From NCBI GenBank assembly GCA_038320275.1, contig JBBQEB010000010.1:1-46084 (forward strand): 46,084 nt of DNA, written 5' to 3'. Position numbers: made by a program. The DNA is from Myxococcales bacterium (GTDB lineage Bacteria; Myxococcota; Myxococcia; Myxococcales; Anaeromyxobacteraceae). Below, piece after piece: positions 15,001 through 18,000 of the stretch; the first letter of the stretch is position 1, and every line of letters starts with the position of its first letter.

Positions 15001-18000
15001 GCGCGCCTACCTCAACACAGGGTGCGTACTGCTCGACTGCAGCTGGATCGACATCGGCGACGACGCATTCCTGGGCCCCGGCGTCCACGTCTATGCGGCC
15101 ACCCACCCGCTGGTCGCGGAGGAACGGATCCGCGGCCCGGAGCTCGCGAAGCCGGTCCGGATTGGCGCCCGGACCTGGATCGGCGGCGGAACCCTCCTCA
15201 TGCCGGGCGTCACGGTGGGTGAGGGGTCCACCGTGGGTGCCGGGAGCGTGGTCACGCGCGACGTGCCGCCGCGGACGCTCGCGGCCGGCAATCCCTGCAA
15301 GGTGATTCGCCGCATCCCCTGACGGCTCAGGGGCGCGTCACCGCCCGCAGCCTCGCCTCCAGCCCGTCGCCGGTGAGACGAGGGGCGAAGCCGTCCGGCA
15401 GATGCGAGAGCTGGTGCAGCCACACGGCAGGTTTGGGCGGCGCGCTGGGGCCTGCGCGCGGGCCGGCTGGGTAGACGAGGTAGACGTCCCAGGCGATCGC
15501 ACGCCCTTCCTGCACGCTCGGGCGCCCGGGGATCCCCAGCTCCCGTGCGAGCTCGAGCCCGAGGCGGAGGCCATCGTCCCAGAACTGCGCGACCCGAGGA
15601 TCGAGCACCTGGGCCGCGGCGCGGCGTGCGGCGGCAGGGCTGTCGTCCGCCAGGACCGGTACCCACACCAGGTAGACGCGCAGGTCCGGCGCGTCGAGCT
15701 TCGAGAGGACCTCGGCGACCACGGAGACCCCGTGGAGACACATGCCTCAGGTAGGGGAGGCCAGCATGAGCAGCCGGGGCTTTCCCGCGTCCTCGTCGAA
15801 GCGCGAGAGGAGCGGCGTGCCCGAGAGCTGCAGCGATGCCGGGCCGGGAACGGCGCGCCCAGCGTGGGAGGGTGCTGCGCCGGCGCAGGCGAGGGAGGCC
15901 GCGAGGGCCAGGGAGAGGAGGGGTCGGGCTGCTCTCAACGGTTGCCTCGTCCATGCGCGGAGGGCCCTCGCGGCCGCCGCGGCCGGTCCTCACGTACCGC
16001 GGTGGACGTCAGGAGAGGTACCTTTGCCGCAGCCCCTCGACGTGGGCGAGAAAACCGGCACGCACGTCCTCCGGCGCCGCCACCTCGGCGTCGCCGCCGA
16101 ACCCGAGCACCCAGCCGTACAGATAAGGTCCCGGCGTGATCATCCCGGTGTAGATCGCCGTGCCGTCGGGCTGTGACTCGGTCGCCTTCGGGTTGCGCTC
16201 CGCGATGAGCCGCGCGGCCACGCCCCTGAAGGCCACCTTCACCTGACGCTCCTGCCCGGACTGAAAGTATAGGTGCTTCCGGGCCAGCCGCTCCACCGGC
16301 GGTCCCTGGTGGGCGCCGAACACGCGCGCTCCCAGCTCCACCTCTGCGATGCGATCGAGCCGGTAGAGGTGCTCCGCCCCCTTCTCGACGTTCCAGGCGG
16401 CCAGGTACCATCTGGAATTCTGGGGGAACAGGAGGCGGGGCTCCAGCACCTTGCGCGTGGCGTCGGCGGTGGCGTCCGCCCGGTAGACGATCGTCACCTC
16501 CACGCGCCGCTGGATCGCCTCCTCCAGCGCGCCGACCCACTCGCCCGGCGCGCTGATCTGGAAGTCGGTGGCGCGAGCCAGCTCGTCGGCCCGCGCTCGC
16601 AGGAAGCCCGGGACACCCCTGCGCAGCTTGCGCGCGGCCGCCGTCACCGCCGGGCCTGCCTGTCCCTCGAAAGGCCGGAGCGCCGCCAGGAGCGCGGCCC
16701 CCTCGCGGAGCGAGAGCGCGGGGGGCTCGACGAGCTGCGCGGTGAGCAGGGCGTAGATGCGGCCGTCGGTGAGCTCGAGCATCACCTCGTGCTCGGGGTA
16801 GGAGGGGAGCGTGAGGCCTTGCGTGTAGGCCAGGTCCTCCTCCACGACCTTCGCGTTGCGGGCGCCGGTGAGGCGGACCGCGTCCTCGAGCGAGAGCCCC
16901 CGGGCGCCCTTCTTCCAGGCGGCCGGGATGAGGATGAGGAGCCTCCGCACCCGCTGGATCGAGGGCTCGCTCACGCCGCATCTCCGGTGGTGGGGCGAAG
17001 GGCTCTCAGCATGACGCGTGCGCGCTCGCGACCTTCGGCGGGCTCCAACAGTTCCGCCTCCGGGCCCCAGGCCAGGCACTGGCGGGCGAGACCGTCGAGG
17101 TTCCTGACCTCGAGCCGGGCGACGCGGACGCCCTCCGGCTCCGCCGCGAGCTTCGCCCCCGGCAGCAGCGTCGCCGCGATCTTCGCCAGCGAGCCGGTGA
17201 AGCGGACGGTGGCCGCGCGCGGCTCGTGTGCCAGGTACTCCCAGGGGAACTGTCGCGACCACTTGCGCATGTCGAAACCCTCCGGAACCTCGAAGTGCGG
17301 GGCAGGCCTTCCGGCGGGCGCGAGCTTCAGCGCCCGGGCGCGCCCGAGGTAGAAGATGCGCGTCCCGCCGCGCAGATGGCAGTGGCCGACGAGGAGCCAC
17401 TCGCCGCCGCGCAATGCGTAGCCGTACGGATCGACGTCGCGCTCGGTGAGCTCGTCGCGGGCCGGCACCCAGTACGAGAGGTGAAGCCGCTTGCGCTCCT
17501 CCACCGCATCGACCACCAGCGCGAGCCGCTTGCGGAGCCCCTCGGGCGCAGGGGGCAGCCCCGCGCCCTCCAGCGCCGGAGCGCGCGGCGGCAGCCCGGC
17601 GCCGCCGACGAGGAGCTTGCGAAGCGCGGACTCCAGGTCGTCGTGCAGCGGGTGCTCCGGGTCTCGGAGCGCCGCCTGCGCGGCGGTGGTGAGCACCGCC
17701 GCCTCGGCGGGCGAGAGCGAGAGCCGGGGGAGGTAGAAGCTGCCGGGCTCGATGCTGTAGGTCCCGCCGTCGTCCTCCGAGAAGTGAAGCGGGATGCCGA
17801 GCTCCTGCAGGTGGCCCTTGTCGCGGGTCCACATCTTCTCCATTCCCGCCGGGGTGCCGCGATAGTCCTTGGGGAACTCGGCATACACGTCCTCGCGGGT
17901 GGCGGGGCCGCGGGCCAGGAACCAGGCGGCGAGCTTGAGGAGGCGCCGCTCGACGGCGCGGGGATTGACGGCGCGGACGCTGACGGCAGGGGGGTTGGCG

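Follow-up and report, generated by a model that had tools for sequence, protein, structure and literature searches.

Does the in-frame TGA at 15747-15749 of this myxobacterial contig end a gene, or does it encode selenocysteine (Sec), and in the latter case what might the resulting protein do? The window, by which we mean the whole stretch of 46,084 nucleotides that was analysed, comes from a metagenome-assembled genome (MAG) of the Anaeromyxobacteraceae. A genome-wide survey had proposed that this TGA unites two open reading frames (ORFs) into a secreted 203-aa selenoprotein of an unnamed thioredoxin-fold family. Judging from the gene and its relatives, we are nearly certain that it encodes a real selenoprotein. 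Our best explanation of the locus as a whole, an exported thioredoxin-fold selenoprotein of an unnamed metal-linked family, is one that we hold with moderate confidence. The features on which the argument turns are as follows.

15327..15938, minus strand: whole gene of 203 codons, one of them the internal Sec codon, followed by the stop TGA 15327-15329
15936..15948, minus strand: likely start, with GAGG at 15945-15948, a 6-nt spacer and TTG at 15936-15938
15858..15938, minus strand: putative N-terminal export signal with a lipobox-like ..LAC, approximately residues 1-27 (MRAARPLLSLALAASLACAGAAPSHAG), recognized by eye
15330..15833, minus strand: predicted thioredoxin-fold domain, residues ~36-203, from the AF2 model and VIA-align
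15747..15749, minus strand: in-frame TGA, read as selenocysteine U64, in a column aligned with the Cys of homologs
15738..15749, minus strand: U-G-M-C (UxxC), a candidate redox or metal-binding motif at the N-terminus of helix 1
15719..15735, minus strand: SECIS-like hairpin, CCACGG (15730-15735), loop GGUCU (15725-15729), CCGUGG (15719-15724)

Reading frame, in-frame TGA and hairpin

The minus-strand frame from TTG at 15938 to the TGA at 15327-15329 is open for 203 codons when TGA 15747-15749 is read through. Readthrough unites a 63-codon ORF (15747-15938) with a 138-aa ORF that begins with ATG (15327-15743), and the motif RLLMLASPT-U-GMC is read in frame, as the survey had reported. GC content at third codon positions is high both upstream of the TGA (0.84 over 63 codons) and downstream of it (0.88 over 139 codons), as claimed, but does not reach the 0.92 and 0.96 given by the survey. 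The start codon is probably TTG 15936-15938; the WYL-type gene upstream ends at 16009. The neighbors in the window are two WYL regulators, an AddAB-like pair and an acetyltransferase, and no metal genes adjoin the gene.

In an hmmalign alignment of 150 homologs, C-x-x-C stands at the U column in 127, a pattern that the survey had seen in 101. The remainder consists of 21 pieces cut at the N-terminus and two odd sequences; 22 short pieces had been counted before, and three of our 21 begin with 'MC..' directly past the U column. Alignment A1 shows no variation at C64 and C67, and A149, W150 and D151 are conserved in it at 90% or more. The survey had also found matches in three relatives, the two long ones with a TGA at the same column. 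This was reproduced in a search of 60 other genomes, three of which have matches: two proteins 58% (G005) and 33% (G008) identical to that of the window, both of which carry a single TGA in that column, and a third (G007) that matches over residues 2-59 only (E 1.9e-4). At the level of the order, the family is present in 10 genomes and takes the TGA form in six, namely the window genome and five others (G005, G008, G283, G288 and G390), in all five of which both sides of the TGA are conserved. Thus, the gene shows the pattern by which bacterial selenoproteins are recognized, a TGA that faces the Cys of homologs between conserved flanks.

Downstream of the UGA, the CCACGG-loop-CCGUGG hairpin described by the survey is present and begins 11 nt past the UGA; the survey had given 13-15 nt. 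The consulted sections of PMC13188914 define a bacterial SECIS (bSECIS) element by a stem of 4-16 bp, a loop of 3-9 nt with a G in its first two positions, a UGA-to-loop distance of 16-37 nt and an MFE <= -7.5. By these limits the hairpin qualifies, with a stem of 6 bp, a loop of 5 nt that starts with GG, a UGA-to-loop distance of 17 nt and -9.1 kcal/mol. A perfect stem of at least 6 bp occurs at the same offset in 4.7% of 20,000 random places in the genome. Among the order-level relatives, a perfect 6-bp hairpin is found in six of six Sec forms and in none of the four Cys forms.

The same difference is seen across the family. In 64 Sec forms, 76.6% of helix cells are paired, compared to 61.3 +/- 1.4 in shuffled alignments, and the covariation score is 0.458 compared to 0.226; none of 500 shuffles reaches either value, and controls slid along the Sec forms give 33-56% pairing. 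In 25 Cys forms, pairing is 46.5% compared to 44.6 in shuffles, and 110 of 500 shuffles reach the observed value; the covariation score of 0.123 is reached by 295 of 500. The hairpin of the window gene lies 2 nt off the family's main register. As in the survey, Rfam gave no SECIS match: nothing in the whole window reached the gathering score, and the sole matches within 15600-15850 were two at chance level (E 7.6 and 8.3).

The ribosome would decode UGA 15747-15749 as selenocysteine via SelB and tRNA-Sec, steered by the hairpin 11 nt downstream. The genome contains selA (409 bits, over cut-off, cut by a contig end), selD (397.5 bits, over cut-off, with one in-frame TGA of its own) and two tRNA-SeC(tca) genes, and selA is present in all five other Sec-form genomes of the order. 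Of selB, only a fragment covering positions 1-49 was found, at the edge of a contig; the C-terminal wing domain (SelB-wing_3) was not found in this MAG, which is 90.7% complete and consists of 343 contigs. This incomplete selB is one argument for reading the TGA as a true stop, in a pseudogene, an assembly error or two small genes; another is that gene callers split the locus, the public protein collection holding only the 138-aa piece (P0002). We nevertheless regard a true stop as scarcely credible, because 64 loci of many lineages have a TGA in this column with both sides conserved, the covarying hairpin is confined to TGA forms, and selA, selD and tRNA-SeC are encoded in the genome. In addition, the family tree requires at least seven switches between Sec and Cys, so both forms must have been maintained over the long term.

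Fold, probable export and place among known families

An AF2 model of the protein (pLDDT 87.3, pTM 0.80, core blocks 92-98) has a thioredoxin fold, in agreement with the survey's proposal, and its nearest structures are exported thiol-disulfide reductases. Residues 1-35 are disordered in the model. Strand 55-60 is followed by helix 65-80, with U64 and C67 at the start of the helix. VIA-align superposes model residues 35-203 on ResA (2f9s) and Mycobacterium tuberculosis DsbE (1lu4), both at Z 13.0 with 124-127 residues aligned, and the same fold is matched in CcmG (1kng; Z 10.9) and TlpA (1jfu; Z 10.6), with rmsd values of 2.5-2.8 A. Foldseek matched DsbF (E 6.5e-5) and also 4txo, the TlpA-ScoI mixed disulfide. 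The model has the hallmarks expected of the extracytoplasmic class, namely a thioredoxin fold with N-terminal and central insertions and a CxxC-type pair where helix 1 begins. A hydrophobic stretch is present in 58 of 74 complete homolog N-termini, followed in 16 by a lipobox-like Cys. We consider it very probable that the window protein is an exported thioredoxin-fold UxxC protein, and it is possibly lipid-anchored.

The likeness to the TlpA/ResA/CcmG/DsbE class lies in the fold, in the probable export and in the pair with which helix 1 begins. The class motif is W-C-x-x-C. The family, in contrast, has SPT-[U/C]-x-x-C and a near-invariant A-W-D ahead of strand 152-156, is only 10-17% identical to the class, and is matched by none of its Pfam or NCBIfam models. 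Its genomic context is of the mer type, not cytochrome or cox, and Sec is commoner in it among the best 80 of 149 loci. None of the models for TlpA-like proteins and redoxins (PF08534, PF00578 and PF13905) finds the window protein. The survey had seen no Pfam or NCBIfam match, and we obtained none even at E<=10; a sequence profile search of the PDB gave nothing under E 0.05. One of 77 homologs scanned (P0022) shows a weak Redoxin match (E 0.0039, under cut-off).

The family's size was reproduced exactly from the survey, at 1261 HMMER matches at E<=1e-3 and 433 at E<=1e-10, and it is indeed unnamed: members are called 'hypothetical' in the sources or are named after a fused HMA domain. For the Cys homolog P0005, ESM Atlas clusters are labelled generically as 'thioredoxin family protein' or 'hypothetical', without Pfam assignment. 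Several thioredoxin-fold UxxC selenoproteins are listed in the consulted part of PMC13188914 (Table 1): Prx-like thiol:disulfide oxidoreductase (PF00578), thiol:disulfide interchange (PF13098), DsbG-like/Rcas_1661 (NF041057), redoxin (PF08534), SaoT (NF040730), HUIPC (NF047660) and thiol-disulfide isomerase-like (cd02966). As described there, they resemble the present family in having Sec for the first Cys of CxxC, a thioredoxin fold, many Cys homologs and a bSECIS directly past the UGA. The Pfam and NCBIfam models named there match neither the window protein nor 66 family members; two of the listed families carry the label cd02966. NF041057 matches seven other places in the genome and none on C10:15330-15938, and among the 66 members one reaches E 0.045. 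The thiol-disulfide isomerase-like selenoprotein from the Sargasso Sea (cd02966; PMC1088965 and PMC13188914, as far as consulted) is the sole listed family that could be identical.

In the open literature that was searched, we found no paper on an SPT-U/C-x-x-C family or on a thioredoxin-like mer component. The family was likewise not found in the consulted parts of PMC13188914, PMC12013277, PMC1088965, PMC8261052 and bioRxiv 10.1101/2022.07.06.499078.

For the genomic analysis, we used the best 80 of 149 relatives in species genomes, chosen by the peptide pattern AWDVYL[VL]Y. Among these, a TGA occupies the U column in 59 of 80 loci, from MAGs labelled as at least 10 phyla, a proportion that is not an unbiased frequency because it derives from a single peptide pattern and the best 80 of 149. 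In this set, Sec forms are the majority and not a rare variant of a Cys family. Protein databases look rich in Cys forms because gene callers truncate the Sec forms.

Metal-handling context and possible function

The fusions and neighbors of family members point to metal handling of the Hg type with MerP/MerT-like partners, as far as gene content can indicate a role. HMA exceeds the Pfam cut-off in 16 of 77 longer homologs scanned, two of which also contain MerT. Among the best 80 of 149 loci, HMA fusions occur in 15 and MerT-HMA fusions in six; all six are Sec forms, and their MerT domain is over cut-off in five and 0.1 bit under it in one. An HMA protein is a neighbor in 19 of the same 80 loci; the one that we scanned scores 121.9 as MerP, over the cut-off of 92.55. 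MerR-family regulators are neighbors in 18 loci, DF family (seleno)proteins in 10, and MerC and a GR/MerA-like reductase in five each. At least one of an HMA, MerR-family, MerC or GR/MerA-like reductase neighbor or an HMA fusion is found in 43 of these 80 loci. Tight same-strand gene orders are seen, such as MerR-DF-[MerT-HMA-x-Trx(U)] and MerR-MerC-Trx(U). MerA itself was rejected as a family neighbor: the four candidates scanned reach 272-330 bits, below the cut-off of 454, and the C-terminal Cys pair is absent from all five members. The MerR-type neighbors all fall under the equivalog cut-off, which leaves Cu, Cd or Zn as possible metals instead of Hg.

The family differs from the mer components with which it occurs. 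In the six MerT-HMA fusions among the best 80 of 149 loci, it forms the C-terminal domain, and the fusion proteins fall under the cut-offs of the models for MerTP (NF033556) and for the MerT/CopZ fusion-like selenoprotein MerT_CopZ_Se (NF045683), while the window copy stands alone. Like MerP, family members are probably exported and may use a vicinal pair of the type that binds thiophilic metals. Their fold is that of thioredoxin rather than the ferredoxin-like HMA fold, which makes the domain an addition and no homolog of MerP; the window protein has no match to MerP (TIGR02052) or HMA (PF00403) with its GMxCxxC motif. The DF family (NF049942; 'hypothetical protein DF' in the consulted part of PMC12013277) is likewise a small Cys/Sec redox-type domain without an assigned function, but it is a different one, as its model does not match the SPT-U-x-x-C domain. 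A DF domain is fused C-terminally in three loci, over cut-off in L155 and L190 and at 69.8 against 70 in L186.

Closer to the window gene, this context fades. No member of its own clade (the window gene, L122, L123, L127 and L156; support 100/99) has a metal context, the neighborhoods of nine order-level loci have nothing in common, and its genome contains no MerT and no MerA over cut-off. Elsewhere in that genome (C125), there is an exported HMA selenoprotein (GUGTC). A split CDF transporter gene beside the G008 homolog was considered as another Sec gene and rejected, as its stop is TAG and not TGA. In a metagenome scan with the fusion protein P0150, the 80 loci retained matched via MerT/HMA patterns, and none of them holds the Trx-like domain. 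No family match was found by tblastn in the plasmid collection, which gives no link to plasmid-borne mer operons there. On sequence context, a metal role is likely for the SPT-[U/C]-x-x-C family; for the window copy, whose own clade is without mer-type context, it would be an extrapolation from the family, and we give it about an even chance.

The mature protein would consist of a thioredoxin domain of the extracytoplasmic ResA/DsbE/TlpA class, with Sec64-x-x-Cys67 as its active pair and the U64 selenolate most probably attacking partners on the periplasmic side. The activity of the family, for which the survey had proposed thiol/selenol oxidoreduction, may be disulfide exchange or direct metal binding, which are equally placed. 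In disulfide exchange, U64 would reduce the Cys/Sec pairs of HMA/MerT-type carriers and thereby enable metal loading. TlpA reduces a Cys pair of the copper chaperone ScoI, and this would be the closest working analogy for a reductase that serves a metal carrier. Alternatively, U64 could itself be a participant in ligand exchange of the Hg(II) or Cu(I) type toward a transporter. An extension of this second option is that the SPT-U-x-x-C domain is an unrecognized periplasmic part of mercury-type metal uptake and resistance systems, in which the selenolate would ligate Hg(II) or another thiophilic metal and relay it to MerT/MerC in Acidobacteriota, Eisenbacteria, Eremiobacterota and other soil phyla, sometimes within a single MerT-MerP-Trx(U) polypeptide. 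We offer this extension only tentatively.

Two other functions for a real selenoprotein must be weighed against a metal-linked role. One is that of a general periplasmic thiol-disulfide reductase or antioxidant, similar to ResA, TlpA or DsbE and active, for example, in cytochrome or envelope maturation, with no tie to metals. In its favor, the nearest structures are ResA, DsbE, SdbA and CcmG (Z 10.9-13.0), and metal genes are neither near the window gene, nor in its clade, nor common to the order-level relatives; the lack of MerT in the genome fits as well. Yet mer-type fusions or neighbors (HMA, MerT, MerC or MerR-type) in 43 of the best 80 of 149 loci speak for a metal link, the exported HMA selenoprotein of the same genome could be the partner, and no cytochrome-maturation or DsbD/CcdA gene lies beside any member examined, all of which makes a general reductase rather unlikely. 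Very improbable is a thiol peroxidase of the GPx/Prx type, with U64 as peroxidatic and C67 as resolving residue, in which the near-invariant W150-D151 would be the counterpart of the Trp-Asn pair of GPx. GPx4, GPx1 and Prx chains are indeed among the fold matches (Foldseek E ~3e-4, VIA Z ~10.0-10.8), and A149, W150 and D151 are highly conserved. However, TlpA-class reductases score higher (Z 13.0 compared to 10.2-10.6), the invariant second Cys at +3 is the signature of CxxC proteins, neither fusions nor neighbors suggest peroxide defense, and no Pfam GSHPx or AhpC-TSA match was obtained at E<=10.

Implications for the bacterial selenoproteome

Because gene callers cut at the Sec codon, databases hold mainly stumps of 125-140 aa and a minority of Cys forms of this family. 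Reading the TGA as Sec would add to the prokaryotic selenoproteome a family frequent among uncultured lineages of soil and sediment, and more than 1,200 sequence clusters would gain a name and a role that can be tested. It also suggests a missing exported partner of mer-type operons, where other predicted selenoproteins cluster (the DF family, GDCCVxC and HMA UxxC forms). If the family ligates Hg(II) directly, as tentatively proposed above, there would be a link between mercury handling and the use of selenium by soil bacteria, and the family would rank with the more widely distributed bacterial selenoproteins that lack annotation.

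The probable selenocysteine codon and its hairpin

Read through its sole internal TGA, a minus-strand frame in the window is open for 203 residues and contains KPRLLMLASPT-U-GMCLHGVSVV, with U64 and C67 as the motif pair.

Features of the joined gene and its hairpin
15327-15938, minus strand: joined gene, from TTG at 15938 to the stop TGA at 15327-15329; open if the sole internal TGA is read through
15938, minus strand: putative TTG start, with GAGG ahead at a 6-nt spacer
15747-15938, minus strand: first table 11 piece, a 63-codon ORF
15747-15749, minus strand: single in-frame TGA, read as selenocysteine (Sec)
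15719-15735, minus strand: hairpin CCACGG-GGUCU-CCGUGG, 11-nt spacer after the UGA; core -9.1 kcal/mol
15327-15743, minus strand: second table 11 piece, a 138-aa ORF with an ATG start

Base composition is coding-like on both sides of the TGA: GC at codon position 3 (GC3) is 0.84 upstream and 0.88 downstream, with position 2 the lowest of the three on either side. The genome-wide survey's note had reported a selenoprotein gene split by the gene caller; we confirm the split, and our results support and refine the note's interpretation, while its GC3 values of 0.92 and 0.96 were not reproduced. The selenoprotein reading is supported by Sec/Cys pairing, a covarying hairpin, and the presence of selA, selD and tRNA-SeC.

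An HMMER search of 1.84 billion representatives gave 1261 matches at E<=1e-3, 433 at E<=1e-10 and 5 at E<=1e-30. When the best 150 were aligned to the window's protein, 127 had Cys at the U column and again three residues on, 21 were N-terminally cut pieces (122-146 aa) beginning at or just after the U column, and 2 were odd sequences; three of the cut pieces begin "MC..", like the window's called gene. C64, C67, F47 and P62 are invariant in a 66-sequence alignment. The family is present in 10 of 363 genomes of the order, six of which (the window's own, G000, and G005, G008, G283, G288 and G390) carry a single TGA, in each case at the U column, and four the Cys form. Scanning one genome per species with the pattern AWDVYL[VL]Y yielded 149 relatives, and among the best 80 there were 59 with TGA at the U column and 21 with Cys, a proportion to be read as indicative rather than exhaustive, since these loci were selected by one motif and score. 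Record titles place TGA forms in Myxococcota (Anaeromyxobacteraceae, Myxococcaceae, Polyangia), Acidobacteriota (many), Eisenbacteria, Eremiobacterota/Vulcanimicrobiota, Chloroflexota, Bacteroidota, Krumholzibacteriota, Thermodesulfobacteriota, Binatia, Gemmatimonadales and Bdellovibrionales, and two Cys forms in Nitrososphaerales archaea. A maximum-likelihood tree of 81 domains requires nine Sec/Cys changes, at least seven of them forced by starred branches.

The window's hairpin fits the bSECIS model of PMC13188914 (Fig. 2 legend), which calls for a 3-9-nt loop with G in the first two places, a 4-16-bp stem, a UGA-to-loop distance of 16-37 nt and an MFE no higher than -7.5 kcal/mol. A perfect 6-bp stem follows the UGA in all six Sec forms of the order, in two sequence types, with a compensatory G-C to A-U change in G283 within one type; such a stem occurs in none of the four Cys forms and at 4.7% of 20,000 random genome positions. 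To test covariation, 64 Sec forms were aligned without gaps over 48 nt from the TGA, and columns 13-20 were paired with 24-31. Paired helix cells amounted to 76.6%, compared to 61.3 +/- 1.4 after shuffling (0 of 500 shuffles reached the observed value), cells changed on both sides numbered 79 compared to 38.5, and the covariation score was 0.458 compared to 0.226 (0/500); slid controls were 33-56% paired. The same helix is at chance in 25 Cys forms (46.5% paired vs 44.6 shuffled, 110/500; covariation score 0.123, 295/500). The window's hairpin is shifted 2 nt from this register, a shift also seen in 9 of the 56 different Sec sequences that the 59 species-genome loci provide. A search of Rfam matched no family.

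The window's genome encodes a selA of 409 bits, interrupted by a contig end, and a selD of 397.5 bits (G000:C66:2314-3246, minus strand) whose one in-frame TGA makes its selenophosphate synthetase itself a selenoprotein. ARAGORN located two tRNA-SeC(tca) genes, each 99 nt long, in two places, which may reflect a duplicated contig in the MAG. Only the first 49 positions of selB were found, at a contig edge, and the SelB wing domain was not found in this MAG, which is 90.7% complete in 343 contigs. Elsewhere in the order, selA is over cut-off in all five other Sec-form genomes and in three of the four Cys-form genomes. Weighing the pairing, the TGA forms, the hairpin and the machinery together, we consider it very likely that the window's TGA is a selenocysteine codon.

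Fold and export signal

Neither Pfam nor NCBIfam (release 20) matched the window's protein at E<=10, and NCBIfam matched neither 66 family members (best E 0.0033) nor two stand-alone Sec forms from other phyla. An AF2 model from a 66-row alignment (pLDDT 87.3, core 92-98; pTM 0.80) adopts the thioredoxin fold and places U64-x-x-C67 at the N-terminal end of helix 65-80. Aligned with VIA-align against 48,161 chains, the model matched best to ResA (2f9s) and Mycobacterium tuberculosis DsbE (1lu4), both at Z 13.0 (rmsd 2.6-2.8 A, 124-127 residues), followed by SdbA, YkuV, the DipZ C-terminal domain, FetE, CcmG and TlpA (Z 10.6-12.4) and, lower, by Sco (about 10.0-10.7), GPx (10.2-10.6) and Prx (10.0-10.8). 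Foldseek agreed, with DsbF at E 6.5e-5 and ScoI, a TlpA-ScoI complex and GPx4 also among its matches. These rankings liken the protein to the exported ResA/TlpA/DsbE class, and judging from the model it would work in the same way; it has the fold in common with that class, but the class sequence models do not match it. By eye, the N-terminus, MRAARPLLSLALAASLAC, resembles an export signal containing a lipobox-like Cys. A hydrophobic stretch is present in 58 of 74 complete homolog N-termini, and a lipobox-like Cys follows it in 16.

Metal-handling fusions and neighbors in the family

HMA is over the Pfam cut-off in 16 of 77 longer homologs among the best 150 (two being MerT-HMA-domain proteins), and precomputed Pfam assignments on profile-search matches gave HMA in 20 of 48 and MerT in 2 of 48. 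Thirty long products were scanned among the best 80 of the 149 loci, and 15 carry a fused HMA domain (8 Sec forms, 7 Cys forms). MerT is over cut-off in five of these 80 loci and 0.1 bit under in a sixth; each of the six is a Sec form, and its domains run MerT-HMA-(unnamed beta-rich domain)-Trx(U), Trx(U) being the thioredoxin-like domain with selenocysteine. The beta-rich domain (about 110-130 aa; G-x-W-x-G, then several hydrophobic strands), which has no Pfam match, lies at residues ~205-330 of the L179 product, and also precedes the thioredoxin-like domain in many homologs of about 300 aa (P0018, P0028, P0033 and P0051, residues ~25-130).

We clustered 508 flanking ORFs, up to four per side of the same 80 loci, and named the cluster representatives. 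An HMA protein is a neighbor in 19 loci (the single one scanned scores as MerP, TIGR02052, 121.9 against a cut-off of 92.55) and a MerR-family regulator in 18, with TIGR02051 MerR the best match in 11 of 14 scanned, all under cut-off. The DF family (seleno)protein NF049942 adjoins 10 (3 of 4 scanned over cut-off; for example, L179:4673-5020 and L198:1586-1900) and zf_CopZ 7. Five loci each have MerC, a GDCCVxC (seleno)protein, a cupredoxin, or a GR/MerA-like flavoprotein that is below the MerA cut-off and lacks the C-terminal Cys pair. At least one of an HMA neighbor, a MerR neighbor, MerC, a GR/MerA-like reductase or a fused HMA is found in 43 of the 80 loci. Genes are closely spaced and share one strand. 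At five Pyrinomonadaceae-type loci, the gene immediately upstream of the family member encodes a protein of roughly 640 aa (for example, L131:4236-5873 and L150:3948-5873) whose last domain is of the GDCCVxC (seleno)protein type (NF041374, 93.2 bits); MerC, a GR/MerA-like reductase, a cupredoxin and a long HMA protein are encoded there too. The DF domain, listed as "hypothetical protein DF" in the deep-Sep paper (PMC12013277), is fused C-terminally to the SPT-U-x-x-C domain at three Blastocatellia-type loci (L155:6001-6936, L190:5845-6789, L186:4737-5654). The two families, both unexplained, seem to work together.

The C-terminus of MerT should face the periplasm, so the fused HMA and Trx(U) domains would be periplasmic, consistent with the export signal of stand-alone forms. 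Trx(U) could reduce the Cys/Sec pairs of HMA- or MerT-type carriers and so enable metal binding, analogous to the reduction of the ScoI pair by TlpA. Alternatively, the selenolate could ligate Hg(II) or a similar metal directly and hand it over. Both options appear to fit the family data, and we favor neither. As for the metal, MerP, MerT and MerC suggest Hg, while the CopZ-type domains, cupredoxin and sub-threshold MerR matches also allow Cu, Cd or Zn. A metal role for the family is, in our judgment, probable.

The window's copy and the place of the family

For the window's own copy, we hold a metal role to be evenly balanced, and its main rival is that the protein is a general periplasmic reductase. 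The protein clusters with Myxococcota-labelled forms and one Actinomycetota-labelled form (L122, L127, L123, L156; support 100/99), none of which has metal context, order-level homologs have no common neighborhood, and neither MerT nor MerA is over cut-off in the window's genome. The same genome encodes, outside the window, a predicted exported HMA selenoprotein of 115 aa (G000:C125:1380-1727, plus strand; L202:1380-1727), a plausible partner of the window's protein. It has the motif M-G-U-G-T-C (TGA at 1536-1538), an N-terminal hydrophobic segment and an 8-bp hairpin beginning about 10 nt after the UGA; its best NCBIfam matches, all under cut-off, are CopZ, the UxxU metal-binding (seleno)protein and MerP.

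The window neighborhood gives no clue to function. Preceding the selenoprotein gene on the same strand are two tandem WYL/WCX (PafBC-like) regulator genes (16012-18035, minus strand), one with a PafC-type HTH, and directly upstream of these an AddAB-like pair of UvrD-helicase and PD-(D/E)XK nuclease (18130-24797, minus strand); a Mac/hexapeptide acetyltransferase gene is convergent with the selenoprotein gene. In G008, a CDF cation-efflux gene adjoining the homolog (L034:9612-10451, minus strand; G008:C122) is split by an in-frame codon. That codon is TAG, which rules out a Sec gene and indicates a broken gene or a sequencing error.

Table 1 of PMC13188914, a 2026 review, gives Pfam, NCBIfam or CDD identifiers for selenoprotein families, both known and predicted, and none of the Pfam or NCBIfam models named there matches this family. 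The available text of Haft's preprint covers other Hg-linked selenoproteins, and the SPT-U-x-x-C family is absent from it. A literature search for the SPT-[U/C]-x-x-C motif found nothing. Database names of members are "hypothetical protein" or, after the fused HMA, "copper chaperone" or "mercuric ion binding protein". We therefore see in it, probably, a further thioredoxin-fold UxxC selenoprotein, set apart by being unmodelled, by its mostly Sec-bearing and widespread membership and by its mer links. Prokaryotic selenoprotein families are discovered regularly, so its kind is unsurprising. With its breadth, its MerT/MerP fusions and a Sec majority that mis-annotation has concealed, it adds something concrete and testable to the selenoproteome and to mercury biology.
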